This document shows positions 1,977-59,000 of a DNA stretch of 64,000 nucleotides, in pieces. Location of the stretch: sequence record OR544955; one strand, written 5' to 3'. The stretch is from Escherichia phage vB_EcoP_EP32B. Each line of letters opens with the position of its first letter. Within the stretch, counting starts at the first letter, position 1. Below the pieces are notes generated by a model that worked only from the letters and a program-made list of their open reading frames with translations, had not been told where the DNA came from and did not search any database. The translations under genes were made by a program, and so were the position numbers.

Positions 1977-2390
1977 ATGAATATTTCTGAAACTCGCGGT
2001 AAATGGTTCAAGATTGTTAAAGAAGACGAAGAACTCCAAGATAAGTTTCCTGAATTAAAGAAAGATACGATCATCAAGGTAATTGGTACTACTACCGAAG
2101 ATGGTTATGGCGACCATGGCATTATCGAAGTGATGTTGAACACAGGTGAGAAACTTTGCATCTATGACCGTGATACTTCTCTTTGGTGCTTCTGGGAATC
2201 CCATTCAATAGATGAACTCGAAGAAATTGACCAAGTAGTTTGTGATGGTGGTCTTGGCGAATTCGAAGGTGAACGTATTTCTTATGCTTTAGCTAAATTA
2301 GCCGGTCAAGAAAATAACGACGGTTATGAAGGTAATCTGATGCAAGCAGCCGCAGAATACATTGAATATTTAGAAAGACGTTTAAGTTAA
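1977..2390 (+). CDS. hypothetical acidic protein (T4 pin/49.x position)
   Basis: 137-aa ORF between nrdC and gene 49. Confidence 0.5.
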   Translation: MNISETRGKWFKIVKEDEELQDKFPELKKDTIIKVIGTTTEDGYGDHGIIEVMLNTGEKLCIYDRDTSLWCFWESHSIDELEEIDQVVCDGGLGEFEGERISYALAKLAGQENNDGYEGNLMQAAAEYIEYLERRLS

Positions 2391-2429
2391 GTAATAAATA
2401 CCCTTATCTATTTAAGGTAAGGGTTTATC

Positions 2430-10855: not shown

Positions 10856-11109
10856 CTTTAGATGAATTTAACAATGCCGGGCTTGGGCTTGAAGTTGAAA
10901 TAGACGTTAAAGATGATGATGGATTCGAGAACACTATTAAGTATTGGATTGAGCCATTACGCGTTGAAGGCAATGAAGTTAAAGCCGTTCATGTCTGTAC
11001 CGACTGGGCTATTGAATTTAGCTTTAATATAATGGACACTGATACTCCTGGCTCTATTCTTAAAATGGCTGAAGCGTGTATTGAGGATGCGTATAATGAC
11101 GAAGACTGA
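10852..11109 (+). CDS. hypothetical acidic protein
   Basis: 85-aa ORF coupled to 47. Confidence 0.5.
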   Translation: MTLDEFNNAGLGLEVEIDVKDDDGFENTIKYWIEPLRVEGNEVKAVHVCTDWAIEFSFNIMDTDTPGSILKMAEACIEDAYNDED

Positions 11110-11317
11110 TTATGAAATCCATCGTCATGAATTTAGTATTGGTGACGGTTATATTGGTATAGTTTTATGAGGAGACAACTCCTCGTTTCTTTGGAACCAT
11201 GTATGTTACTTGTGAGTACGCACCAGGTGTTGTTATGTATGCAGAACTAGATGAATATTTTGCTGATAGAGATGACATGTTAAAATATGTAGAGGACTTC
11301 ATTCGAAGAGAATACAT

Positions 11318-12880
11318 ATGAAATCATTTAAATTAAATCGTGTTCGTTATCAAAACATCATGTCAGTAGGTGGGAATCCTATTGATATCCAATTAGATAA
11401 AGTCCAAAAGACATTAATCACTGGTAAAAATGGCGGTGGTAAATCTACGATGTTAGAAGCCATTACTTTCGGACTTTTCGGTAAACCATTTCGTGATGTT
11501 AAGAAAGGACAAATCATTAATAGCATGAACAAGAAAGAGCTCTTAGTTGAGCTTTGGATGGAATTCGATGATAAAAAATACTTCATTAAACGTGGCCAAA
11601 AGCCCAATATTTTCGAAATCTCCGTTGACGGTGTTCGTCTCGATGAATCTGCCAGCAGTCGTGACTTCCAAGAAGAATTTGAACGTAGCATCGGAATGTC
11701 ATACGCGTCTTTTAAACAAATCGTTGTGCTTGGGACGGCAGGGTATACCCCTTTCATGGCTCTTAGCACCCCTGCTCGTAGAAAGCTTGTTGAAGACTTA
11801 TTAGAAGTTGGCACACTCGCTGAAATGGATAAAATCAATAAGTCTCAAGTTCGCGAACTTAATTCTCAGGGACAAGTTCTTGATGCCAAGAAAGATGGTA
11901 TTATCCAACAAATTAAGATTTATAACGAGAATATCGAACGTCAAAAGAAATTATCTGGTGATAATGTAGCGCGTCTACAGAATATGTATGACGACCTAGC
12001 CAAAGAAGCTCGGTCATTAAAAGCAGAAATCGAAGAAGCTAATGAGCGACTACTTAATATCGTTCTTGATGAAGACCCTACTGAGGCATTCAACAAGATA
12101 GGACAAGAAGCATTCTTGATTAAATCTAAAATTGACTCATATAACAAAGTTATTAAGATGTATCATGATGGCGGTACATGTCCTACTTGTGCATCACAGT
12201 TGCACCAGGGTGACCCTATTGTCTCTAAGATTACCGATAAGCTTCATGAATGTAATCACTCATTCGAGCAACTTACATGTCACAGAGATAATCTGAGTGT
12301 CCTAGTGGACGAATATAGAGCTAATGTCAAGACTAAACAGGACCTTGCATCTGATATTCGTACCAAGAAACAAGCAATGATTGCCACTATTGATAAAGCT
12401 AAGAAAGTTAAAGCTGCAATAGAACAAGCCTCAGCAGAATTTATCGACCATGCCGATGAGATAGCTTTGCTTCAAAAAGAACTTGATAAAATCATTAAAA
12501 CAAAATCGGATATCGTTCTTGAAAAATACCATCGTGGTATTATCACAGATATGTTAAAAGATTCTGGTATTAAAGGTGCTATCATTAAAAAATATGTGCC
12601 TCTGTTCAACAAGCAGATTAACCATTATCTTAAAATCATGGAAGCTGATTACGTGTTTTCTATTGACGAAGAATTCAATGAATCTATAAAATCACGTGGC
12701 CGTGAAGAGTTCAGTTATGCTTCATTTAGTCAAGGCGAAAAAGCGCGTATCGATATCGCATTGTTGTTTACATGGCGAGATATTGCTGAAAAGGTCTCTG
12801 GTGTTAAAATCAACACAACGTGTTCATTATTTCTCACAGAGACCATGACCCACAAGCTTATGGACAACATCTTCAAATGA
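11318..12880 (+). CDS. 46: recombination ATPase gp46 (Rad50/SbcC-like); C-terminus disrupted, H-loop segment continues in another frame to 12918
   Basis: Walker A GKNGGGKST, zinc hook CPTC, signature SQGEKARIDIAL; no Walker B in frame; VFIISHRDHDPQ in other frame. Confidence 0.85.
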   Translation: MKSFKLNRVRYQNIMSVGGNPIDIQLDKVQKTLITGKNGGGKSTMLEAITFGLFGKPFRDVKKGQIINSMNKKELLVELWMEFDDKKYFIKRGQKPNIFEISVDGVRLDESASSRDFQEEFERSIGMSYASFKQIVVLGTAGYTPFMALSTPARRKLVEDLLEVGTLAEMDKINKSQVRELNSQGQVLDAKKDGIIQQIKIYNENIERQKKLSGDNVARLQNMYDDLAKEARSLKAEIEEANERLLNIVLDEDPTEAFNKIGQEAFLIKSKIDSYNKVIKMYHDGGTCPTCASQLHQGDPIVSKITDKLHECNHSFEQLTCHRDNLSVLVDEYRANVKTKQDLASDIRTKKQAMIATIDKAKKVKAAIEQASAEFIDHADEIALLQKELDKIIKTKSDIVLEKYHRGIITDMLKDSGIKGAIIKKYVPLFNKQINHYLKIMEADYVFSIDEEFNESIKSRGREEFSYASFSQGEKARIDIALLFTWRDIAEKVSGVKINTTCSLFLTETMTHKLMDNIFK

Positions 12881-13173: not shown

Positions 13174-13590
13174 ATGTTTACTACTGCTAAAGGTTTTACC
13201 GCTGCTGATCTGAAAGTTACTTCTATCCGTACTGACGCTAACCCGCATAACCATAATCGTGTTCGTAAAGCATGGGTCCTGCATTGTGATGACGCAAGTG
13301 CTAAAAAGCTTCAATCTTTGCCACAAGAAACTCGTTTTATGATTTATGGTTTTATTGATAACGATGTATCTGATATGTGGATTCATTTGATGCGTAAGCA
13401 CTATAAAGATTCTATCGAAGCAGGTGCTAAAATCGTTCTTGATAAAGATGGTTCTGAGCGTCTGGAAGATTTCTACTGTGTTGATGCCGATGAACAATTA
13501 ATTGCAGCTGGCGAAATTGTTGCTTCTAAAATTCCAGAATATATTGAATCACTGCCTGAAGCTATTAAAAAGCAGATGGTTGCTGCATAA
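13174..13590 (+). CDS. rpbA: RNA polymerase-binding protein RpbA-like (by synteny)
   Basis: 138-aa ORF between 45.2 and 45. Confidence 0.55.
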   Translation: MFTTAKGFTAADLKVTSIRTDANPHNHNRVRKAWVLHCDDASAKKLQSLPQETRFMIYGFIDNDVSDMWIHLMRKHYKDSIEAGAKIVLDKDGSERLEDFYCVDADEQLIAAGEIVASKIPEYIESLPEAIKKQMVAA

Positions 13591-13632
13591 TAAATTTGTT
13601 ATAAACTTTGAATTGTCTTGAAAGGAAATAAA

Positions 13633-14319
13633 ATGAAACTGTCTAAAGATACTATCGCTATTCTGAAAAACTTTGCCTCTATTAACTCAGGCATTCTGCT
13701 GAGTCAAGGTAAATTTATTATGACTCGTGCAGTTAATGGCACCACTTATGCGGAAGCAAATATCTCTGATGAAATTGATTTTGACGTAGCACTTTATGAT
13801 TTGAATAGCTTCTTAAGCATTTTGAGTCTAGTGTCTGATGATGCTGAAATTTCAATGCACACCGATGGCAATATTAAAATTGCAGACACACGTTCCACAG
13901 TTTATTGGCCTGCCGCTGACAAGAGCACCATTGTTTTTCCTAATAAGCCAATTCAATTCCCAGTGGCTTCTGTGATTACTGAAATTAAAGCTGAAGACCT
14001 TCAACAATTGCTTCGAGTTTCACGTGGTCTTCAGATTGATACAATTGCTATTACAAATAAAGATGGTAAAATTGTTATCAACGGCTATAATAAAGTTGAA
14101 GATTCCGGACTAACTCGTCCTAAGTATTCTTTGACTCTTACCGATTATGATGGCTCTAATAACTTTAACTTTGTAATCAATATGGCTAATATGAAAATCC
14201 AGCCAGGTAACTATAAAGTAATGTTGTGGGGAGCTGGTGATAAAGTTGCAGCTAAGTTTGAAAGCTCTCAAGTAAGTTATGTTATTGCAATGGAAGCCGA
14301 TTCTACTCACGACTTCTAA
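13633..14319 (+). CDS. 45: sliding clamp gp45
   Basis: 228 aa, MKLSKDTIAILKNFASINSGI...ADSTHDF, recalled T4 gp45 match. Confidence 0.95.
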   Translation: MKLSKDTIAILKNFASINSGILLSQGKFIMTRAVNGTTYAEANISDEIDFDVALYDLNSFLSILSLVSDDAEISMHTDGNIKIADTRSTVYWPAADKSTIVFPNKPIQFPVASVITEIKAEDLQQLLRVSRGLQIDTIAITNKDGKIVINGYNKVEDSGLTRPKYSLTLTDYDGSNNFNFVINMANMKIQPGNYKVMLWGAGDKVAAKFESSQVSYVIAMEADSTHDF

Positions 14320-16374: not shown

Positions 16375-19059
16375 ATGAAAGAATTTTACTTAACGGTTGA
16401 ACAGATTGGTGATTCAATTTTTGAACGTTACATCGATTCTAATGGCCGTGAACGTACTCGTGAAGTAGAATATAAACCATCACTGTTTGCTCATTGTCCA
16501 GAAAGTCAGGCTACGAAATATTTCGATATCTACGGTAAGCCGTGTACTCGTAAGTTGTTCGCTAATATGCGTGATGCCTCCCAATGGATTAAACGTATGG
16601 AAGATATCGGACTTGAAGCACTTGGCATGGACGATTTCAAATTGGCGTATTTGTCTGACACTTATAACTATGAAATCAAATACGACCATACAAAAATTCG
16701 TGTGGCTAACTTCGACATCGAAGTAACATCTCCGGACGGGTTCCCTGAGCCGTCACAAGCAAAACATCCGATTGATGCTATCACCCATTATGACTCAATT
16801 GACGACAGGTTCTACGTATTTGATCTATTGAATTCTCCATATGGTAATGTAGAAGAATGGTCTATCGAAATTGCAGCTAAGCTTCAAGAACAAGGTGGTG
16901 ATGAAGTTCCATCCGAAATTATCGATAAAATCATTTATATGCCGTTCGATAACGAAAAAGAATTGTTGATGGAATATCTCAACTTCTGGCAACAGAAAAC
17001 TCCTGTCATTTTGACTGGATGGAACGTTGAGTCATTTGATATTCCATATGTGTATAACCGAATCAAGAATATTTTTGGCGAATCTACTGCGAAACGTTTA
17101 TCACCACATCGTAAAACTCGTGTTAAAGTTATCGAAAACATGTATGGTTCTCGTGAAATCATTACATTGTTCGGTATCTCTGTTCTTGATTATATTGACC
17201 TTTACAAAAAATTCTCTTTTACCAATCAACCGTCGTATTCTCTGGATTACATTTCAGAATTTGAATTGAACGTTGGTAAACTGAAATACGACGGTCCTAT
17301 TTCTAAACTTCGTTATAACATCATCGACGTATATCGTGTATTGCAAATTGATGCTAAACGCCAGTTCATTAACTTGAGTTTGGACATGGGTTATTATGCT
17401 AAGATACAGATTCAATCTGTGTTTAGCCCAATTAAAACATGGGATGCTATTATTTTTAATAGCCTTAAAGAACAAAACAAGGTGATTCCACAAGGTCGTT
17501 CGCATCCAGTTCAACCTTACCCGGGTGCTTTTGTTAAGGAACCTATTCCAAATCGATACAAATATGTAATGAGTTTCGACCTTACATCTCTGTATCCAAG
17601 TATTATTCGCCAAGTGAATATTAGCCCGGAAACAATAGCAGGAACGTTTAAAGTAGCTCCACTGCATGATTATATTAACGCAATCGCTGAACGTCCTTCA
17701 GATGTGTACAGTTGCTCTCCTAACGGCATGATGTATTATAAAGACCGTGACGGTGTTGTTCCAACTGAAATCACTAAGGTCTTTAATCAACGTAAAGAAC
17801 ATAAAGGTTATATGCTTGCAGCTCAACGTAATGGTGAAATAATTAAAGAGGCATTGCATAATCCTAATCTTTCTGTTGACGAACCATTAGATGTTGATTA
17901 TCGTTTCGACTTCAGCGATGAGATTAAAGAAAAGATTAAAAAGTTGTCTGCTAAATCTCTTAATGAAATGTTGTTTAGAGCTCAACGTACTGAAGTTGCA
18001 GGTATGACTGCACAGATTAACCGTAAATTGCTTATCAACTCACTTTATGGTGCACTTGGAAACGTTTGGTTCCGTTATTATGATTTGCGTAATGCTACTG
18101 CAATCACAACATTCGGACAAATGGCTTTACAGTGGATTGAACGTAAAGTTAATGAATATCTGAATGAAGTTTGCGGTACAGAAGGTGAAGCTTTCGTTCT
18201 TTATGGTGATACAGACTCTATTTACGTATCTGCTGATAAAATTATCGATAAGGTTGGTGAATCTAAATTCCGTGATACCAACCATTGGGTAGACTTCTTA
18301 GATAAGTTCGCTCGTGAACGTATGGAACCTGCTATTGATAGAGGTTTCCGTGAAATGTGCGAATACATGAATAATAAGCAACATTTGATGTTCATGGACC
18401 GAGAAGCTATCGCTGGTCCTCCGCTCGGTTCTAAAGGTATTGGTGGATTTTGGACTGGTAAGAAACGTTATGCATTAAACGTGTGGGATATGGAAGGTAC
18501 TCGTTACGCTGAGCCTAAACTCAAAATCATGGGTCTAGAGACTCAGAAATCTTCGACACCTAAAGCAGTACAGAAAGCTCTTAAAGAATGTATTCGTCGT
18601 ATGCTTCAAGAAGGTGAAGAATCATTACAAGAATATTTTAAAGAGTTTGAAAAAGAATTCCGTCAATTGAATTATATTAGCATCGCGTCGGTATCTTCTG
18701 CGAATAACATTGCTAAATATGATGTCGGTGGATTCCCTGGCCCCAAATGTCCGTTCCATATTCGTGGAATTCTGACATATAACCGAGCTATCAAAGGTAA
18801 TATCGATGCACCGCAAGTTGTAGAAGGTGAAAAAGTATATGTTCTGCCTTTACGTGAAGGAAACCCATTCGGTGATAAATGTATCGCATGGCCTTCTGGT
18901 ACGGAAATCACTGATTTAATCAAAGATGATGTACTTCATTGGATGGACTACACGGTTCTCCTTGAGAAGACATTTATTAAACCACTTGAAGGATTCACAT
19001 CAGCAGCTAAACTCGATTACGAGAAGAAAGCATCTCTGTTCGATATGTTTGATTTTTGA
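16375..19059 (+). CDS. 43: DNA polymerase gp43 (family B, RB69-type numbering)
   Basis: 894 aa; Exo I FDIE (D114/E116), D222, YGDTDS, KILINSLYG; strong match to recalled RB69 gp43. Confidence 0.97.
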   Translation: MKEFYLTVEQIGDSIFERYIDSNGRERTREVEYKPSLFAHCPESQATKYFDIYGKPCTRKLFANMRDASQWIKRMEDIGLEALGMDDFKLAYLSDTYNYEIKYDHTKIRVANFDIEVTSPDGFPEPSQAKHPIDAITHYDSIDDRFYVFDLLNSPYGNVEEWSIEIAAKLQEQGGDEVPSEIIDKIIYMPFDNEKELLMEYLNFWQQKTPVILTGWNVESFDIPYVYNRIKNIFGESTAKRLSPHRKTRVKVIENMYGSREIITLFGISVLDYIDLYKKFSFTNQPSYSLDYISEFELNVGKLKYDGPISKLRYNIIDVYRVLQIDAKRQFINLSLDMGYYAKIQIQSVFSPIKTWDAIIFNSLKEQNKVIPQGRSHPVQPYPGAFVKEPIPNRYKYVMSFDLTSLYPSIIRQVNISPETIAGTFKVAPLHDYINAIAERPSDVYSCSPNGMMYYKDRDGVVPTEITKVFNQRKEHKGYMLAAQRNGEIIKEALHNPNLSVDEPLDVDYRFDFSDEIKEKIKKLSAKSLNEMLFRAQRTEVAGMTAQINRKLLINSLYGALGNVWFRYYDLRNATAITTFGQMALQWIERKVNEYLNEVCGTEGEAFVLYGDTDSIYVSADKIIDKVGESKFRDTNHWVDFLDKFARERMEPAIDRGFREMCEYMNNKQHLMFMDREAIAGPPLGSKGIGGFWTGKKRYALNVWDMEGTRYAEPKLKIMGLETQKSSTPKAVQKALKECIRRMLQEGEESLQEYFKEFEKEFRQLNYISIASVSSANNIAKYDVGGFPGPKCPFHIRGILTYNRAIKGNIDAPQVVEGEKVYVLPLREGNPFGDKCIAWPSGTEITDLIKDDVLHWMDYTVLLEKTFIKPLEGFTSAAKLDYEKKASLFDMFDF

Positions 19060-19099: not shown

Positions 19100-19408
19100 A
19101 TGAAAACTACTCCTATTACTATCGCTATTGACGCAATCATAAAACAAGCTTCTTCTTTGGCCGCTATGGCCAAAGTAATTAGTCAAAACCCTGCTCGTTA
19201 TAATGCTATTCTAGAAACTCTTCGACGCCCTGGACTGAGTAATTATGAAAGTCGTGTAATTATTACAGGTGTTGGTAAGAACGCTAATATCGCAACTAAA
19301 GCTTCCGAGACATTTGCTTCACTCGGTATCCCGAGTATGTACTTGAACACTGGGCATTATTCTCACGGTGATGCAGGATTCATTGCGCCTAATGAGGCAT
19401 CGCGGTAG
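19100..19408 (+). CDS. KdsD/GutQ-like SIS-domain sugar-phosphate isomerase, N-terminal part (gene frameshifted, continues 19396-19575)
   Basis: ITGVGKNANIATK..TFASLGIPS..HGD; downstream frame has LAPTMSTT and HPGGALG. Confidence 0.6.
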   Translation: MKTTPITIAIDAIIKQASSLAAMAKVISQNPARYNAILETLRRPGLSNYESRVIITGVGKNANIATKASETFASLGIPSMYLNTGHYSHGDAGFIAPNEASR

Positions 19409-21884: not shown

Positions 21885-23045
21885 ATGAATACTTTTAAAA
21901 TTGGAACGAATTTTGATTTAGCTCTTCTTGATAAAATCGTAGAGCTCAATAAAACTTATCCTAATAGCTTGATAAACGAAGTATACGGCTCTACAAGAGA
22001 AATGGCTTTTGTAGCAGCCAGACCTGATTTTAGGCTTCCTGACGTTGACAAAAAGATGTTAGAAGATTACGTTAAACGTTGTAACGAATTAGGTATTTGC
22101 TTTAACTATACACTCAACACGATAAATCCTGGTTCAAAAAGAGAACTAGTCGAGTGGAAGAAGAAAGCTATTCAGGATTATGTTCAGTATCTTTGGTCAA
22201 TAGGCGTATGGCGTATTACTATCGCTAACCCTGTTGTTATGGAAATTGTTCGTGAAGTCAATAAAGACATTGAGATTGAAGTTTCAACAATTCTACATGT
22301 CGATGCTGTAACTCAAATAAAATACTTGCATGACCAATATAATATCAAAAAGGTCTGCTGTGGAATTCATAAGAACCGTTCAGTTTCTTTCCTGAAGCGT
22401 GCAGCAGAGTTTTGCAATAAGAACAATATAATATTTGAAGTTCTTGTAAATGAGTTCTGTTCTAATGCTGGTAAAGGGTATACAACACATTGTAGCTATC
22501 GTGACTCTTGCTATATTTTCCATAGTACTGATGTTACAGCCGATGATGCTAAATCCTTAAACGGGTATCCTATGCAGCACTGTATTAAAGCTCGTGATAC
22601 AGACCCATTTAACTGGTTGAGAACTCGTTTTGTTCGTCCTCAAGATTTGAAACTTTATAATGATATTGGTATCACTCAATTCAAAGTTTCAGGACGTACA
22701 GGTAGCACAGACTACATTTTGAAAGTTCTTGAAGCATACGCTTCTGAAAAGTTTGAAGGTAATTTGTTAGAACTGTGGAAGCCTTTAGAGACTATTTTCA
22801 CTCTTGAAAATGAAACTGAGTTTTCACATACAGTAAATATTGAAACCTCTTTGTTAGATGGCTTTTTAGAAAAAAGGTGGTTCAGACATCCAGATTTTGA
22901 TTGTGCTAATGAAATCTGTGGATCAACGTGTACATATTGTGAAAGATATTATAAACGTCAATTATCTAAAAACGGGTTAGCAGAAAACTCTATATCTATT
23001 ATTGATATAACTAACTCTGATGACGCTTTGAGGTACCCGGAATGA
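21885..23045 (+). CDS. hypothetical protein with Cys-rich C-terminus; faint peptidase-U32-like motif
   Basis: 386 aa; NEFCSNAGKGYTTHCS and CANEICGSTCTYC. Confidence 0.5.
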   Translation: MNTFKIGTNFDLALLDKIVELNKTYPNSLINEVYGSTREMAFVAARPDFRLPDVDKKMLEDYVKRCNELGICFNYTLNTINPGSKRELVEWKKKAIQDYVQYLWSIGVWRITIANPVVMEIVREVNKDIEIEVSTILHVDAVTQIKYLHDQYNIKKVCCGIHKNRSVSFLKRAAEFCNKNNIIFEVLVNEFCSNAGKGYTTHCSYRDSCYIFHSTDVTADDAKSLNGYPMQHCIKARDTDPFNWLRTRFVRPQDLKLYNDIGITQFKVSGRTGSTDYILKVLEAYASEKFEGNLLELWKPLETIFTLENETEFSHTVNIETSLLDGFLEKRWFRHPDFDCANEICGSTCTYCERYYKRQLSKNGLAENSISIIDITNSDDALRYPE

Positions 23046-23323
23046 TTTCTAGAAAAACTTTTAATCACCAACTTAATGAAGAGATTTTGACTATTAAAAT
23101 TAACACTAACGAACAAATTCTTAAAAAGGCCCTTATGGGCCTGTTTGAAACTAAAGCGGCTAAAGTGATTAAAGAACCTGTTCAATTGGAATACTACGCT
23201 GATGCATTTCTTCATAGTGTTCTTGGAAGTATCGATGCTGAAGCTTTACGTTATATCAACATTGTCAAGAAATTCAAATAAGCTTTACGAATTGAGTATA
23301 TAATAAATTGTATTGAGGTAAAC

Positions 23324-24040
23324 ATGGGAAAACATAACACAATGAAATATATCAAAGCCGCAGATTTTCAAACCGCATTTAAAGCAGTCAATCGTGAAAT
23401 TTTAGAAAACCCGGAATTCGTAACTGATTCTCGTATTGGACGTTGTAATGAAATTGGGTCTATGACAGTAGTTGTTGACACTCCATCATCATTCAAAATG
23501 ACCGACCCGCGTATTAACCGCATCTCTTATGAATATGCCGAAGACTTCTGGAAGTTTATGATTTCTGGTGGTACTGACGCAGAAGAAGCGTTTAAGGCAT
23601 ATCCTAATGTCGCTAAATTTATTTCTAAACCAAAATCAGATGCTTTGCCTGCAAACTTCAACACTTTCTATGGTCCTCGCATTGCGGCCCAATTACCAGC
23701 TCTTCTAAAAGAACTTAAAGAGAAGCCTAACTCCAGAAGAGTTGTGTTCCAAATTCTAGAAAGTTCTGATCAGGCTTTGCTTGATTCGGACGAAACGCTT
23801 GAATATCCATGTACTGACTCAGTGACTTATTATATTCGTGACGGTAAGCTTTATACCCACTGTCATATGCGTTCCCAGAACTGTGCTGTTGTTATGCAGT
23901 TGGATTTTTATCTCCAAGGAAAATTACTTCATTATATCGCTAACGAATGCGGTGTAGAAGTTGGTGATTATACTCATACCATGGTAAGTGCCCATGTGTT
24001 TGAACGTGATTTTGATTATGTTAAAGGATTCCTTGACTAA
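23324..24040 (+). CDS. thymidylate-synthase-family deoxypyrimidylate hydroxymethylase (gene 42 position)
   Basis: NSRR, catalytic Cys in YPCT, MRSQN..D; RBS GAGG. Confidence 0.65.
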   Translation: MGKHNTMKYIKAADFQTAFKAVNREILENPEFVTDSRIGRCNEIGSMTVVVDTPSSFKMTDPRINRISYEYAEDFWKFMISGGTDAEEAFKAYPNVAKFISKPKSDALPANFNTFYGPRIAAQLPALLKELKEKPNSRRVVFQILESSDQALLDSDETLEYPCTDSVTYYIRDGKLYTHCHMRSQNCAVVMQLDFYLQGKLLHYIANECGVEVGDYTHTMVSAHVFERDFDYVKGFLD

Positions 24041-33224: not shown

Positions 33225-33313
33225 AATATCTCCTTAGTTACCTATTATTTATTACGCTTTATAAAATTAATGTTAGAATTAACTCACTTATTACTGAATT
33301 GAAAGGAAAAATA

Positions 33314-33628
33314 ATGGCGCACTTTAATGAATGTTCACAACTTATTTCTGGTGTTGATAAAGCAGAAGAAGCTTATTTTAATGCTCTGATTCACGAAGAT
33401 AAAGACCCACTTCAGGTAATGCTTGATATGCAGAAATCTTTACAGGTTCGTCTGGCAAATGACAAGCCTGAACATAACAAACATCCTGATGAATTGGCTA
33501 CTGCCGGTGATGTTGTTGATTGGCTGCGTAATCAGAAAGATTATATTGATGATGAATTCCGTGAACTGTTGACTTCACTTGGTGGTATGATTATAAATAC
33601 ACCTGTAATTAAACAACAAAGGAGTTAA
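33314..33628 (+). CDS. MazG-like all-alpha NTP pyrophosphatase (gene 56 dCTPase-like), possibly short
   Basis: 104 aa; DDEFRELL motif; position after 61. Confidence 0.45.
   Translation: MAHFNECSQLISGVDKAEEAYFNALIHEDKDPLQVMLDMQKSLQVRLANDKPEHNKHPDELATAGDVVDWLRNQKDYIDDEFRELLTSLGGMIINTPVIKQQRS
33592..33599 (+). promoter_or_regulatory. late promoter TATAAATA for soc
   Basis: exact TATAAATA about 32 nt upstream of soc ATG. Confidence 0.7.
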
Positions 33629-33630
33629 TT

Positions 33631-33774
33631 ATGGGTGGTTATGTAAACATCAAAACCTTTACGCATCCTGCTGGTGAAGGCAAAGAAGTTAAAGGTATGG
33701 AAGTTTCTGTACCGTTTGAGATTTATTCAAACGAACATCGGATTGCTGATTCTCATTACCAAGTAAGTGGTTAA
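33631..33774 (+). CDS. soc: small outer capsid protein Soc, short form (47 aa)
   Basis: MGGYVNIKTF..EVSVPFEIYSNEHRIADSHYQ resembles recalled T4/RB69 Soc N-terminal half. Confidence 0.6.
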   Translation: MGGYVNIKTFTHPAGEGKEVKGMEVSVPFEIYSNEHRIADSHYQVSG

Positions 33775-33782
33775 ATAATTTA

Positions 33783-33808
33783 AGGAATCCTTCGGGATTC
33801 CTTTTTTT
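33783..33808 (+). terminator. UUCG-tetraloop hairpin plus T7 run
   Basis: AGGAATCC TTCG GGATTCC TTTTTTT. Confidence 0.75.
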
Positions 33809-33817
33809 GTTTCTACA

Positions 33818-33848
33818 GTTTACAACCACTAAAAACTGTGTTAAGATA
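33818..33848 (+). promoter_or_regulatory. early promoter
   Basis: -35 GTTTACA, 17-nt spacer, -10 TAAGAT. Confidence 0.55.
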
Positions 33849-43170: not shown

Positions 43171-44988
43171 ATGATTAAAAATGAAATTAAGGTATTGTCA
43201 GATGTAGAACATATTAAGAAACGTAGTGGTATGTATATTGGTTCTTCGGCCAAAGAAGCACATGAGCGTTTTTTGTTTGGTAAATATCAACAAGTTGAAT
43301 ATGTTCCTGGTCTGGTTAAATTAATCGATGAGATTATTGACAACTCGGTTGATGAAGCTATTCGTACATCATTTAAGTTTGCAAATAAAATTGATGTGCA
43401 AATTAAAAATAATCAAGTTTCGGTGGAAGATAACGGGCGTGGTATTCCTCAAGGTTTAGTTACCGACCAAACAGGTGAACAAATTCCTGGGCCTGTAGCA
43501 GCCTGGACTATTCCAAAAGCCGGTGGTAACTTTGGCGATGACTCTGAACGCAAGACTGGTGGTATGAACGGCGTCGGGAGTAGTTTAACTAATATCTTCT
43601 CTACGTTGTTTACAGGCATCACGTCAGATGGCGAAAACGAAATCACTGTTAACTGTTCAAACGGAATGGAAAACAAATCATGGTCTTCTAAGAAATCTAA
43701 AGGTAAAGGCACTAAAGTAATCTTCACTCCTGATTTCTCTTCGTTTGAAGAGCATAATTTATCTCAAATTTATTTAGATATTACTTTAGACCGACTTCAA
43801 ACATTGGCAGTCGTTTATCCTGATATCAAGTTCACATTTAACGGTAAAAAGGTTGATGGTAATTTTAAACGATTTGCTAAACAATTTGGTGAAGATAACA
43901 TCATTCAAGAAAATGATAAAGTCTCTATAGCATTCACAACATCACCAGATGGCTTCCGTCATTTAACTTATGTGAATAACATCCATACTAAAAATGGCGG
44001 TCATCATGTTGAATGTGTAATGGATGATATCTGTGAACATCTTTTACCTGGTATTAAAAAGAAATATAAGGGTATTGAAGTCACTAAAGCTCGTGTTAAA
44101 GAATGCCTCACAATGTTGATGTTTATTAGAGACATGAGCAACATGCGTTTTGATTCTCAGACTAAAGAACGTTTAACGTCAACGTATGGTGATATTCGTA
44201 ATCATATCCAATTAGATGCTAAGAAAATTGCTCAGGCACTTCTTAAAAACGAAGCCTTGATTATGCCTATTGTTGAAGCGGCATTAGCTCGTAAATTGGC
44301 GGCAGAAAAGGCTGCAGAAACTAAAGCGGCTAAAAAGGCAACTAAAGCTAAGGTTCATAAGCATATTAAAGCTAACCAATGTGGTAAAGATGCAGATACG
44401 ACATTGTTCTTAACAGAAGGTGATTCGGCAATTGGTTATCTCATTGATGTTCGTGACCGTGAACTACACGGCGGATTCCCATTACGTGGTAAGGTGATGA
44501 ACAGCTGGGGTATGTCATATGCTGATATGATGAAGAACAAAGAGCTCTTTGATATCTGTGCTATCACAGGTCTTATTCTTGGTGAAAAGGCAGAGAATAC
44601 GAACTATCGTAATATTGCAATTATGACTGATGCAGATCACGACGGTCTTGGAAGTATCTATCCGGCTTTGCTTGCTTTCTTTAGTAATTGGCCCGAATTG
44701 TTTGAACAAGGACGTATTCGCTTTGTTAAAACGCCTGTAATTATTGCACAAATTGGCAAAACTCAAAAATGGTTTTATACTGTAGCTGAGTATGAAGAAG
44801 TTAAAGATACACTGCCTAAGCATAGTATTCGATACATCAAGGGATTAGGCTCACTTGAAAAGTCAGAATATCGTGAAATGATTCAGAACCCTGTGTACGA
44901 CGTAGTTAAACTTCCTGAAAATTGGAAAGAACTCTTTGAAATGTTGATGGGTGATGATTCAGAACTTCGTAAAGAATGGATGTCCTAA
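43171..44988 (+). CDS. 39: DNA topoisomerase II large subunit gp39 (GyrB-like; 39 and 60 fused)
   Basis: 605 aa; GHKL ATPase motifs, TOPRIM; single continuous ORF. Confidence 0.95.
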   Translation: MIKNEIKVLSDVEHIKKRSGMYIGSSAKEAHERFLFGKYQQVEYVPGLVKLIDEIIDNSVDEAIRTSFKFANKIDVQIKNNQVSVEDNGRGIPQGLVTDQTGEQIPGPVAAWTIPKAGGNFGDDSERKTGGMNGVGSSLTNIFSTLFTGITSDGENEITVNCSNGMENKSWSSKKSKGKGTKVIFTPDFSSFEEHNLSQIYLDITLDRLQTLAVVYPDIKFTFNGKKVDGNFKRFAKQFGEDNIIQENDKVSIAFTTSPDGFRHLTYVNNIHTKNGGHHVECVMDDICEHLLPGIKKKYKGIEVTKARVKECLTMLMFIRDMSNMRFDSQTKERLTSTYGDIRNHIQLDAKKIAQALLKNEALIMPIVEAALARKLAAEKAAETKAAKKATKAKVHKHIKANQCGKDADTTLFLTEGDSAIGYLIDVRDRELHGGFPLRGKVMNSWGMSYADMMKNKELFDICAITGLILGEKAENTNYRNIAIMTDADHDGLGSIYPALLAFFSNWPELFEQGRIRFVKTPVIIAQIGKTQKWFYTVAEYEEVKDTLPKHSIRYIKGLGSLEKSEYREMIQNPVYDVVKLPENWKELFEMLMGDDSELRKEWMS

Positions 44989-45030: not shown

Positions 45031-45621
45031 ATGAAAGTTATGTTTATCCCATCTCGCGCAGTCCCATTTAATCCTGACCGTGTACAAGGTGGACTTGAAG
45101 CAGTACATTTAAATGTGTTGAAATATTTAGTTTCTATCGGTGCCGATATTGATTATATTGGTTTTGATAATGACACATTTGGTGATTGGAAGGTTAATCA
45201 TCATCCTGTTGGTCATCTGACTAAATTCAGTCTAGGTATGAGTTATACTATGGCCCGTAAGATTGTTGAACTAGCCGGCATCCATGAATACGATTTTGTT
45301 GTTACTATGGAACCGACTAAACTAACCGTCCAAGCAATTAAAGATGCTGGACTCTCTAAAGTTCATAAGAATTTTATGGCAACACCGTTTGAACCGGTAT
45401 CTCGTGGCATTGTTCAAATTTGGGACCAGACTATTCAAATTCATAAGAATGGTGGTAAGAGTTATGCTCCTACTAAAGCCTTCCGTGAATTTGAACGTAA
45501 ATATTGTTATATGACTTCAGGTCTGACTGACAAAATTGATTATGATTATTGGCGAGCAAATCCGTTGTTTGAAGCCGAAGATTATCCGGTTATTTGTTTG
45601 AATGAGAAACCTGAGATCTGA
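45031..45621 (+). CDS. GT-B-fold glycosyltransferase, N-terminal domain (gene split by frameshift)
   Basis: MKVMFIPSRAVPFNPDRVQGGLE..; ends NEKPEI. Confidence 0.55.
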   Translation: MKVMFIPSRAVPFNPDRVQGGLEAVHLNVLKYLVSIGADIDYIGFDNDTFGDWKVNHHPVGHLTKFSLGMSYTMARKIVELAGIHEYDFVVTMEPTKLTVQAIKDAGLSKVHKNFMATPFEPVSRGIVQIWDQTIQIHKNGGKSYAPTKAFREFERKYCYMTSGLTDKIDYDYWRANPLFEAEDYPVICLNEKPEI

Positions 45622-46420: not shown

Positions 46421-48634
46421 ATGATTATTGAAACGGCTAAAGAAACGATTATTGGTTCAGGCGGTAAGAGCACAGCATTCACTATTCAAGGCAATAGCAA
46501 AGTTTATAAGATTTTGTCTAATGACCTTTATACAAACAAAGAATTGGCTTGTGTACGTGAATTAATCACAAACTGTATCGACGGACAAATTCTTAATGGT
46601 TGCACTGATAAGTTTATTGTTCAGGCTCCAGGTCGTTTAGACCCACGTTTTGTAGTTCGAGACTTTGGTCCTGGTATGAGTGATTTCACCATTCGAGGTA
46701 ATGACGAAGAGCCAGGAATCTATAACTCATATTTTGCTTCAACTAAAACATCGAGTAACGATTTCATTGGTGGATTCGGACTCGGCTCTAAAGCTCCACT
46801 AGCATATACCGATACGTTTAACCTTACGTCTTATCACAACGGTGAAGTTCGTGGTTATGTAATTTACCAAGATGACACAGGTCCACAAATTAAGCCGACC
46901 TTTGTAGATAAGATGGGTCCTGATGACCGTACGGGTGTAGAAGTAGTCGTACCGGTTAACCCGGAAGATTTTGAAAAGTTTGCATCCGAAATTGCATATG
47001 TTATGCGTCCTCTAGGTGATATTGCAGAAGTTCGTGGTGTTAAAGATATTAAATACTTCCCTGAATTTGACGATGTATATTTGGCCAAGGAAGCTCCATG
47101 GGGTGAACGCGGTAATATCATGGCTGTTTATGGTGGTATTGTATATCCAATCGGAAGTGTTATTAAAGAACAAACATGGATGATGACGCGATGCACTACA
47201 GCTTATATTAAATTCCCTATGGGTGAACTAGATGTAGCTCCGTCTCGTGAAGCATTGTCATTTGATAAACGTACAGTAGCAAATATCCATAAACGCGTTG
47301 CAGAAATCGATGCTAAATTGTTCGCTGAAGATTCTAAGAAATGGATTGATTGTAAATACCCGCGTCATGTATTCCGTGAAATTGATTCTCTCGGCTATAC
47401 CGCTCGTAAATACATGGAAAAGGCCGGGTCTAATATTGAATCACTGAAATACTCTAAAGAACAACTAACTTATTCTGAGTTGTACAAACGTTTTAAAATG
47501 GGGCCTGAGTGGTGTAATCTTGGCGTCGTATACGATATCGTTGAATCCCCTCGTCTTCGTCGTATTCGTGAAAGTGGTAGCTCATCATCAACTATTTCAA
47601 TTAACAGCCTGATTGGCATTAACATTAAAAACGTTGAAATTGTTATTGACGACGTTAAGGGACGCGTTCCATTAATGCGAGCTCTTAATTCGATTGAAAT
47701 GTCTAAAGACGAGGTTAAATTAACCGGTAAAGTTCCACGCGGTTTTGGTAAAAGCGTACTATTCGTTGACCCTACAGACGAAGATGCAATGAAACTTCTT
47801 GAACGTCTTAAAGTTATCTTTGATGGCGACAACATTAACATGTACAAGACTTCAGAGCTTTTACAAATCGTTAAGCCATGGATTGAAGTCAGGAAACGGA
47901 CTAATGAGCCTCGCCCTAAATCACCGAGTGCCCATCGTTTCTTCAAGAACGAAAACGATGTTTGGGTATCGGAAGATCTCTTTATTCCAGCGAGTGAAGC
48001 TGATGAAATCCAAGGTTATGCTATAGTTCGTAATCGTTCTAATGCTGAATGTCTTGACGCAGATAAAGGTTGGTTGAACTATGACTCTAATTTCTTGACT
48101 CGTATTGCCGATTTGTCAGGTATTAAAGAGTTCACTGTAGTTCGCCCACAAATTGCTAAGAAAGTTCGTAAACTTGGTGAAGTAGAATGTTTGTTTGAAA
48201 AATCAATTAATGACTATATTATGCTAATCGATAAAGTAGATTATGATGAGTATGTATCACCAAGTCGTAGAGCACAGCCTTATTTGAATCATATTACTCG
48301 TAATGAAGAGCTTAACTTCCTTAGTAAGTATTTTAGCTCTAAGAACAAAGAAATCAGTAAAGACTTTGCAAAACTCTCAACAGTAAATAATCGCTGGGGA
48401 TGGAATCGATTCGCAGGTGCTGATAACAGAGACCTTAACAGGAAGTTAGAATTGTGTGCTAAAATTTTCGATAAGCTTAAAGATAATGCTTACGATAATG
48501 ATGATAAAATGGTTATTGAATTTGAAACCAATTATCATATTGTGTCAGAATACATGGGACGACGTGGTACTCTTTCCAAAGAACAGGTCGCTCAAATCGT
48601 TAAATTCATGAAGGCCGTGGAAGCGGCCAAATAA
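46421..48634 (+). CDS. rIIA: rIIA protein (GHKL-ATPase-like)
   Basis: 737 aa; N-terminus MIIETAKETIIG..VRELITNCID..FGPGMS as recalled for T4 rIIA. Confidence 0.9.
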   Translation: MIIETAKETIIGSGGKSTAFTIQGNSKVYKILSNDLYTNKELACVRELITNCIDGQILNGCTDKFIVQAPGRLDPRFVVRDFGPGMSDFTIRGNDEEPGIYNSYFASTKTSSNDFIGGFGLGSKAPLAYTDTFNLTSYHNGEVRGYVIYQDDTGPQIKPTFVDKMGPDDRTGVEVVVPVNPEDFEKFASEIAYVMRPLGDIAEVRGVKDIKYFPEFDDVYLAKEAPWGERGNIMAVYGGIVYPIGSVIKEQTWMMTRCTTAYIKFPMGELDVAPSREALSFDKRTVANIHKRVAEIDAKLFAEDSKKWIDCKYPRHVFREIDSLGYTARKYMEKAGSNIESLKYSKEQLTYSELYKRFKMGPEWCNLGVVYDIVESPRLRRIRESGSSSSTISINSLIGINIKNVEIVIDDVKGRVPLMRALNSIEMSKDEVKLTGKVPRGFGKSVLFVDPTDEDAMKLLERLKVIFDGDNINMYKTSELLQIVKPWIEVRKRTNEPRPKSPSAHRFFKNENDVWVSEDLFIPASEADEIQGYAIVRNRSNAECLDADKGWLNYDSNFLTRIADLSGIKEFTVVRPQIAKKVRKLGEVECLFEKSINDYIMLIDKVDYDEYVSPSRRAQPYLNHITRNEELNFLSKYFSSKNKEISKDFAKLSTVNNRWGWNRFAGADNRDLNRKLELCAKIFDKLKDNAYDNDDKMVIEFETNYHIVSEYMGRRGTLSKEQVAQIVKFMKAVEAAK

Positions 48635-54535: not shown

Positions 54536-54623
54536 AATCATTTAAAGAACGTTTAGAAATGAAGTTCCTGAAATCTGTTGGCAAACTCTGGTTATTCCTG
54601 GAGTTCGTCATTACTCTAAAGAT

Positions 54624-57375: not shown

Positions 57376-57408
57376 ATTATAAAAAAGGGACCGAAGTCCC
57401 TTCTCCTT
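57376..57408 (-). promoter_or_regulatory. gene 38 translation initiation region: SD separated from AUG by a UUCG hairpin
   Basis: mRNA UAAGGAGAA GGGACUUCGGUCCC UUUUUUAUAAU AUG. Confidence 0.65.
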
Positions 57409-58992
57409 ATGCTAAACGAACGATATAGTTAAAAGCAACGTTTTTAACTGTGTTTTCTGTATTTCCTGTGGCATTTACAGTTATTGTATGTCCATGGGAA
57501 CCAATTGCAACAGTATGAGAATGAGCACCAATACCTACCGAATGGGTATGAGCGCCAATACCCACAGTATGAGCATGGTTACCCGTGGTACTTGTGGTTC
57601 CTGACCAAGAGTGTGTATGGTTACCTTCTGAAGAAGTTTTGGCTATATTCGACCCTGCAGTAGCACCGTTCACGGTTCCAGTGAATTTAGAGCACTATGG
57701 TTATGAGACTTAATACCATCTGCTTCTGTACTTAATACAGCACGCCCAGATGGTTTACCTTTAATCGTTTGCCCACGCATATCAGGCAGAGAGCCGGAAG
57801 GATACACCGCAGCTAACTTAGGATACAAGCCAGCATCAAATGTTTGACCTTCCATTATGGCATAACCTTCAGGAGGTGTATCAGTAGGCCATGGAATCGG
57901 AGCACCAATTGGGTAACTCGACACAATATCCGTCTTAAGGTTATTTATTGTGGTATTCAAGTTAGCAAAATTACCAGAACCGCCGGTGATATTACCATCA
58001 GTACCAATAATTGTCCTAATTGCATACGGTAATTAGGAGAAATGCGACTATGACTAGTTATAACAACAAGTTTATTATCATTATCAACGGTCACCATATT
58101 ACCGCCAGCACCATCATCACCTAACGTAACAGAATGGCGCATTTGAACCATACCGTTAATAGTGGTTCATTTTACCACCAGCATTGTACCCGATATGGGT
58201 TTGTCCGTCTCCAGCATTGTTATTATCAGCTTGTGTTTGAACCCTTGGTCTTCTGAACGTCCAAATATACCTTTACGAGTACTACGGAAACTGTCAGGAG
58301 TAATAGAAGCAACAGAATTCCAATTACCTACTAAATCATAAACTCCTTGCTTAATATATTTTAAGCCAGTAGCAGCATCCCCCAAAGCAATATATCTTTC
58401 TCCCATTGGAGTAGGAGAGCCGTAGTTATTGGTATTTTCGTCAGCAGTAATTGTGCCAATAGCAAGTGAACGACGTAATACCATTGCTCCATCATTACGA
58501 AGACCCATTAATTTAGTAGTAAGTATATTTCCGGTCCACCAAGAAATTTCATCATTCTTACCAGTTTGAGCTGAAGCGATTTCATGGTAAATAGTTCCGC
58601 CTGATTTAGCTCGAACTTTACGAAGATAGTTTATACCATTTTCTTCACCTGTTCCAGGATAAACATATTGAACTAATGACTGCGAATCGTATTGTCCAAA
58701 TGCTTTTGTGTCCAAAACAATGGTTTTCGTATTAACTTGCGGAGCAGAAACTATACCATTAGCGGAGTTAATATTGCCGGACGCAGAAATATTACCTGCG
58801 TTGAGTTACATTACCGTTAATATCCCCGCCCTTAGCAAAGCCTAGGCTAATAATATTACCGAGGTCATCTTTAGTAAAAAGAGTTCGATCTTTTAAGTTT
58901 ATCGCTAATTCGCCTTCGGCTAATTGTGCTGCAGTAGGATTAACTCCTGCTACTTTGCTTCTTTTAAATTGTATCTGTTTTAATGTAGCCAT
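57407..58992 (-). pseudogene. 37: distal tail fiber gene 37 (T4 type), reading frame broken into at least five segments
   Basis: N-term [13 protein letters not shown]; internal [23 protein letters not shown]; His-box C-term [22 protein letters not shown]; frame changes near 58790, 58235, 58155, 57670. Confidence 0.8.
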
Positions 58993-59000
58993 AAGTCCTC

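Follow-up and report, generated by a model that had tools for sequence, protein, structure and literature searches.

A nine-residue gap before the Exo III motif of gp43 in Escherichia phage vB_EcoP_EP32b, very probably a dropout of the sequence record

The subject of this analysis is the family-B DNA polymerase gp43 encoded in a 64,000-nt stretch, read on one strand and called the window below, of the sequence record OR544955 of Escherichia phage vB_EcoP_EP32b. The record comprises 156,698 bp with no transfer RNA (tRNA) reported, and the phage was co-isolated with vB_EcoM_EP32a (OR544954, 163,906 bp) (PMC11657129). The genome is that of an RB69-like Mosigvirus of the Straboviridae, and the gene order regA-43-KpsF-like gene is common to RB69 and the window. 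The open reading frame (ORF) of gp43 was delimited from the list of ORFs, the RB69 gp43 chains of the PDB and Pfam, and its motifs were placed by alignment and by invariant columns. The positions discussed are as follows (aa, amino acids).

16375..19059, plus strand: ORF of the gp43 family-B DNA polymerase, 894 aa here, whereas RB69 and all close relatives have 903 aa
16714..16722, plus strand: Exo I, D114-I115-E116, unshifted relative to RB69
17038..17040, plus strand: Exo II, D222, unshifted relative to RB69
17313..17314, plus strand: junction of the missing 27 bp (nine codons), between the R313 codon CGT (17311-17313) and the Y314 codon TAT (17314-17316)
17314..17328, plus strand: core of Exo III, YNIID, kept, with Y314 equivalent to RB69 Y323 and D318 to RB69 D327
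17578..17601, plus strand: polymerase motif A, DLTSLYPS, D402-S409, equivalent to RB69 D411-S418 and thus shifted by nine

The 894-aa protein aligns end to end with the RB69 gp43 chains (903 aa, e.g. 1clq and 1ig9), the expect value being 0 against both RB69 and T4 gp43 chains, and it is matched by the Pfam families DNA_pol_B_exo1 (PF03104, 102.1 bits) and DNA_pol_B (PF00136, 92.9 bits) with a gathering cut-off of 23. The alignment to RB69 contains one gap of nine residues, corresponding to RB69 E314-S322 (ESNHQRYIS); since the protein is otherwise 99.9% identical to RB69 gp43, the gap is not a chance effect of the alignment. Query R313 directly abuts Y314. At the nucleotide level the window reads CTTCG followed at once by TTATAAC, while the relatives have CTTCG-TGAAAGCAATCACCAACGATATATTTC-TTATAAC, so that the junction lies between 17313 and 17314 by codon, or between 17312 and 17313 given the 1-nt ambiguity, or microhomology, of a T. 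The first-pass annotation had described a gp43 nine residues shorter than that of RB69, whose length it gave as 903 aa, and both statements agree with the PDB chains and with the cluster members considered below. It had placed the gap between KLR and YNIID, directly before the Tyr and Asp of Exo III and within 17250-17360, where the junction indeed falls; this is inside the 3′-5′ exonuclease domain, which comprises residues 109-339 of RB69 gp43 (PMC5009745). Its reading of D114, E116 and D222 at RB69 numbering, with Y314/D318 and D402…Y407 shifted by nine, is borne out by the alignment columns, and the gap is indeed present on alignment to RB69 and the close relatives, the check that it had named.

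The polymerase motifs of the enzyme are kept. Motif A (DxxSLYPS, D402…Y407-P408), motif B (KxxxNSxYG, K551…N555/Y558/G559) and motif C (DTDS, D612-T613-D614-S615) all fall in invariant columns. Both residues of the Exo III Y-x3-D pattern, Y314 and D318, are likewise present, the latter being the equivalent of the ExoIII residue D327 named in PMC3564110, but the nine residues before the Tyr are absent; in a wild-type model they run into a helix of residues 317-338. The same Exo I-III and A-C motifs are found in RB69 gp43 (DPOL_BPR69, NP_861746; PDB 1clq, 1ig9, 1ih7 and about 100 other entries), with which 892 of 894 aligned positions agree along the whole protein. The sole substitution relative to RB69 gp43 is I437 (codon 17683-17685), which corresponds to V446 of RB69, i.e. 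V446I. T4 gp43 (PDB 9e5y and 1noy) belongs to the same enzyme family and also matches the ORF; the T4-length cluster P0051 (898 aa, 61% identical) has RETNHQRYIS before YNIID at the gap site.

The shortened form was found in this record only. An exact-sequence look-up returned the 894-aa protein once, as NCBI WPK29069.1 of vB_EcoP_EP32b, labelled “hypothetical protein”, and the other full-length proteins listed in its 90% cluster, RB69 NP_861746 among them, are 903 aa long. All 181 phage records that match window positions 17150-17470 span 348 nt against 321 nt in the query and therefore carry the 27 bp. The best full-gene matches listed are 2712 nt each against 2685 nt in the query, and the sister phage EP32a, too, has a full gene of 2712 nt. 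A degenerate pattern of the junction gave no matches in IMG/VR, metagenome contigs or bacterial genome contigs; no second carrier of it was found there. An indel at the gap site was sought in 106 full-length homologues whose identity ranges between 39% and 99%, and none was found; all keep the nine residues, with the consensus x-x-(N/D)-(H/P)-Q-x-Y-(I/V)-x and a nearly invariant Q318. Natural length variation at this site among distant T4-like polymerases was thus dismissed. Even in NRG-P0074 and a20, whose local synonymous single-nucleotide polymorphisms (SNPs) are for the most part those of the window, the segment is retained as CGAAAGTAATCATCAACGATATATAAGC, encoding RESNHQRYIS.

The gap in gp43 does not stand alone. 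An alignment of the window with O157 typing phage 3, its closest relative at 97.8% identity, shows 22 segments of at least 4 bp that are absent from the window and none that is extra in it. The sizes are 216, 190, 4, 298, 28, 14, 88, 27, 160, 24, 4, 12, 594, 94, 96, 16, 14, 175, 247, 334, 765 (722 + 43) and 350 bp. As a control, the finished genomes of typing phage 3, RB69 and NRG-P0074 were compared pairwise over the same region, which yielded no more than 2-6 differences in either direction; most of these are small ORFs or homing endonucleases of 700-840 bp. The large natural indels of this comparison arise because NRG-P0074 has four annotated homing endonuclease genes (locus positions 10991-11845, 13546-14262, 22984-23745 and 47732-48529), which are lacking in the window, RB69 and typing phage 3. 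About 17 of the dropouts are absent from every reference comparable at the site. Only about 7 of the 22 lengths are divisible by 3, i.e. there is no bias toward the reading frame, and microhomology was 0-1 nt at all 20 junctions examined, as random breakpoints give. The sequence lost in the 4-, 12-, 16- and 24-bp dropouts varies little or not at all among all the relatives. The sites that were located, in addition to that in gp43, are listed here.

1541, plus strand: 216 bp missing, absent only from the window
about 2384-2391, plus strand: 190 bp missing, also lacking in NRG-P0074; EP32a has no gap at about 2388
5527, plus strand: 298 bp missing, also lacking in NRG-P0074
6215, plus strand: 28 bp missing, absent only from the window
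11164, plus strand: 14 bp missing in gene 46.1, absent only from the window
12816..12817, plus strand: 88 bp missing in the recombination nuclease subunit gp46, shifting the frame at about aa 500-507 of 562
19395..19396, plus strand: 160 bp missing in the KpsF/GutQ-like gene RB69ORF055c, present in typing phage 3, EP32a, RB69 and NRG-P0074
30919/20, plus strand: 24 bp missing in gene 61.2, with one variable base among four relatives
31072/73, plus strand: 4 bp missing in gene 61.2, identical or nearly so in four relatives
31457/58, plus strand: 12 bp missing in RB69ORF033c, identical or nearly so in four relatives
33589..33590, plus strand: 440-594 bp missing by comparison with RB69 and typing phage 3, or 250 bp by comparison with EP32a and NRG-P0074, removing the 3′ half of gp56
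about 33762, plus strand: about 94 bp missing, soc truncated
36065, plus strand: about 97 bp missing in modA, frameshift
45614..45615, plus strand: 16 bp missing in RB69ORF003c (annotated as a glycosyltransferase in NRG-P0074), frameshift; invariant in all relatives
49976, plus strand: 14 bp missing at the N-terminus of denB
54557-54583, plus strand: 201 bp replaced by 26 unaligned nt in arn.3
57690..58801, minus strand: distal tail fibre gp37 in six fragments, with junctions at 57690/91, 58009/10, 58157/58, 58242/43 and 58800/01 and 247, 334, 722, 43 and 350 bp missing

For the blocks of 190 and 298 bp, natural presence/absence polymorphism is the probable cause, as NRG-P0074 lacks both and EP32a is ungapped at the 190-bp site. 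The 160-bp loss looks to be of the same class as the gap in gp43: it lies in the arabinose-5-phosphate isomerase gene of KpsF/GutQ type directly downstream of gp43, where the frameshift leaves an ORF of 102 aa (19100..19408) against 211 aa.

The integrity of the genes was assessed by tblastn of RB69 and typing phage 3 proteins against the window. Of the gp56 dCTPase only residues 1-92 of 173 remain (region 33299-33830), and of soc only residues 1-45 of 78. The tail fibre gp37 survives as fragments of aa 1-69, 180-367, 382-411, 651-699, 812-917 and 1000-1093 in alternating frames. Each of these fragments (57400-59000, minus strand) is 94-100% identical to typing phage 3, and they are joined without overlap. 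Further broken genes are 46.1, 61.2, modA, denB, RB69ORF003c, arn.3 and the KpsF-like gene. T4 genetics established that genes 56 and 37 are needed for productive infection. As EP32b does produce plaques, on seven O157:H7 strains (PMC11657129), these losses must be in the record and cannot be in the phage.

The record of EP32a (OR544954), which was produced by the same pipeline, offers a useful comparison. Most listed relatives are longer than its 163.9 kb, its gp37 is truncated and its gp46 is interrupted where that of the window is, but unlike EP32b it has an intact, full-length gp43, and EP32b has more dropouts. Damage of the same kind beside an intact polymerase indicates that the cause lies in the pipeline and not in the phages. 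In gp46, EP32a (locus positions about 44276-44298) lacks 89 bp against 88 bp in the window, the boundary differing by 1 nt, and the missing block is hypervariable, with 58% identity between typing phage 3 and RB69 against 96% in the flanks. Judged from these alignments, the shared loss suggests that part of the dropout process may be triggered by divergent sequence.

The source study reports sequencing by Illumina NextSeq 2x150, followed by Trimmomatic and SPAdes 3.13, and its data statement gives only GenBank accessions (PMC11657129). The nearest relative, typing phage 3, has 168,733 bp and most other relatives among the matches listed have about 164-171 kb; OR544955 is about 12 kb shorter than the former. 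In the window about 3.75-3.95 kb out of 68 kb are missing, a proportion that roughly matches the shortfall of the whole genome. The record is labelled “complete genome” at 156.7 kb without tRNA, whereas EP32a of the same study has two tRNAs. The name vB_EcoP implies a podovirus morphotype and the abstract of PMC11657129 says “Phapecoctavirus”, while the genome is that of a Mosigvirus of the Straboviridae; the morphology, taxonomy and sequence of OR544955 are mutually inconsistent.

All of this is best accommodated if the 27-bp gap in gp43 is an artefact of the construction of OR544955 and not a really shortened enzyme, a reading that we hold with high confidence, because the gap is unique, some twenty dropouts run in one direction with random-looking sizes and junctions, and needed genes are destroyed. 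At about 22 dropouts in 64 kb, a gene of 2.7 kb should contain about 0.9, and the chance that a dropout is in frame is 1/3; this expectation, together with the lack of any real deletion ever seen at the site in relatives, underlies that confidence. The real EP32b phage almost certainly encodes a normal 903-aa gp43 with RESNHQRYIS before YNIID. The distinctive shortened polymerase implied by the first-pass annotation is accordingly not supported: the gap occurs in a single public record, which over these 64 kb has about twenty dropouts like it, several of them lethal if real. Short stretches would have been lost from the assembled or consensus sequence and the flanks joined directly. Plausibly, positions below a coverage threshold, or runs of N between contigs, were removed and the flanking sequence was then concatenated. 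The clean abutting junctions, the sizes from 4 bp up and the larger losses where relatives are hypervariable fit such a process.

Three points weigh on the other side. De novo assembly by SPAdes alone is not normally expected to yield a 27-bp deletion unless reads span it, so that some later, unreported processing step must be supposed. The gap is in frame and leaves the catalytic carboxylates and the Tyr and Asp of Exo III intact, as would be the case in a tolerated natural deletion. A Y320A/D324A recombinant of T4 gp43 was recovered, i.e. proofreading-disabled phage is viable (PMC11693715), and a real deletion in gp43 would therefore not have to be lethal.

Several other causes were considered. 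Slippage between direct repeats does not account for the gap, as the only nearby repeat, TATTTCT, recurs 36 nt apart and would delete 36 nt to join PIS to YN, while the observed microhomology is 1 nt. A coverage bias from GC-rich or modified bases gave no consistent trend, the deleted blocks having 33-56% GC (33% for the gp43 block) against 37% overall. A general rule that dropouts are divergent blocks agrees with gp43, gp46 and gp37, yet it does not hold for the 4-, 12-, 16- and 24-bp dropouts or in a test of blocks against flanks with three references, and it survives only as a partial rival.

Were the deletion real and recent, the Exo III helix would lose its first two turns, Y323 and D327 would be mispositioned relative to Exo I and Exo II, and the phage would replicate but proofread poorly, as a mutator. 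Its being in frame, the retention of every catalytic residue of Exo I, II and III and of the polymerase motifs, and the viability of T4 gp43 exonuclease-site mutants (PMC11693715) are in keeping with this. An AlphaFold2 (AF2) model of the 894-aa protein is likewise folded overall, with a mean predicted local distance difference test (pLDDT) score of 88.5. For comparison, the wild type was modelled as the 903-aa cluster representative P0002 (99% identical), in which residues 309-315 and 317-338 are helical; the missing residues 314-322 would thus span the tail of the short helix, the kink that follows and six residues at the start of the Exo III helix, on which Y323 and D327 lie. In the 894-aa model the Exo III helix starts exactly at Y314. 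The pLDDT of residues 301-330 falls from 82/90/96 in the wild type to 57/76/90, and that of residues 151-180 in the exonuclease domain from 90/92/86 to 79/72/70; the loss of confidence is thus local, at 301-320 and 151-180, with the rest unchanged, and it is only suggestive as AlphaFold is not a predictor of stability. By analogy with the T4 mutants of Y320 and D324, a real deletion would likely impair proofreading and possibly reduce polymerase activity. The T4 exonuclease-site mutants (Y320A, D324A/G and E191A/D324G) include Exo III mutants that lose proofreading and often some polymerase activity, and severe exonuclease defects often impair the latter too (PMC5009745), which counts against a real deletion. 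These are point substitutions of the catalytic Tyr and Asp, whereas the window keeps both and lacks the nine residues before them; a search of the literature for characterised mutations in T4 311-319 or RB69 314-322 found only data of the Y320/D324 type and no deletion of the segment. Set against a strongly conserved segment, a deletion met neither in the 181 records and 106 homologues nor in the three large contig collections, and a record full of dropouts that cannot be real, in which chance alone would be expected to place one in gp43, a real deletion is very improbable.

Two further accounts bear on how such a gap could arise. According to one, itself a version of the artefact, the library mixed two Mosigvirus haplotypes, e.g. 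an EP32a-like one and EP32b, and the assembler or consensus failed across the divergent block. Precisely where the block is missing, 7 of 28 nt distinguish the two haplotype classes, though both encode RESNHQRYIS; the flanks of the gap in the window carry class-B SNPs (as in NRG-P0074 and a20), while the lone retained junction base T is as in class A, to which EP32a, from the same host and enrichment as EP32b (PMC11657129), belongs. The class differences include a TCT/AGC switch of the serine codon at S322, which takes at least two substitutions via non-serine intermediates, or recombination. The gp46 dropout, coinciding with a hypervariable block and recurring in both assemblies, is also in line with mixing. 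Nonetheless, bubble popping normally retains one arm and does not delete both, and in a comparison of three references the deleted blocks did not, as a rule, diverge more than the sequence on either side. Mixed haplotypes cannot be the general cause, because the 4-, 12- and 16-bp dropouts and the 24-bp block with its one variable base lie in sequence that is invariant or nearly so; for the gp43 gap itself the account is somewhat unlikely, at perhaps a quarter of our belief. The other account, that all deletions are real and were made by a defective polymerase in a mutator population, is supported only by the finding of many deletions and a polymerase lesion side by side in a single record. Proofreading defects, as known from T4 mutators, mainly raise substitutions and small frameshifts, and deletions of 100-700 bp without microhomology are unlike that spectrum. 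Moreover, half a gp56 and a gp37 in six out-of-frame pieces are incompatible with the plaques of EP32b on its seven O157 hosts. With essential genes broken and EP32a damaged in the same manner despite an intact gp43, this account is rejected as barely conceivable.

The difference between the window and RB69 gp43, the loss of E314-S322 together with V446I, is most likely not biological. As the polymerase is probably an ordinary gp43 of RB69 type, the gap most likely has no biological import, and its value is that of a warning on data quality: a record labelled as a complete genome has about twenty unmarked gaps in 64 kb. Errors such as WPK29069.1, the truncated dCTPase and the fragmented tail fibre would be inherited by alignments, structure models, pangenomes and safety calls in phage therapy. 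In the very unlikely event that the deletion is true, EP32b would be a wild proofreading-impaired, or mutator, phage of T-even type in which a near-invariant segment is dispensable for viability, and it would be a rare experiment of nature on how far the Exo III helix of a family-B polymerase can be shortened.

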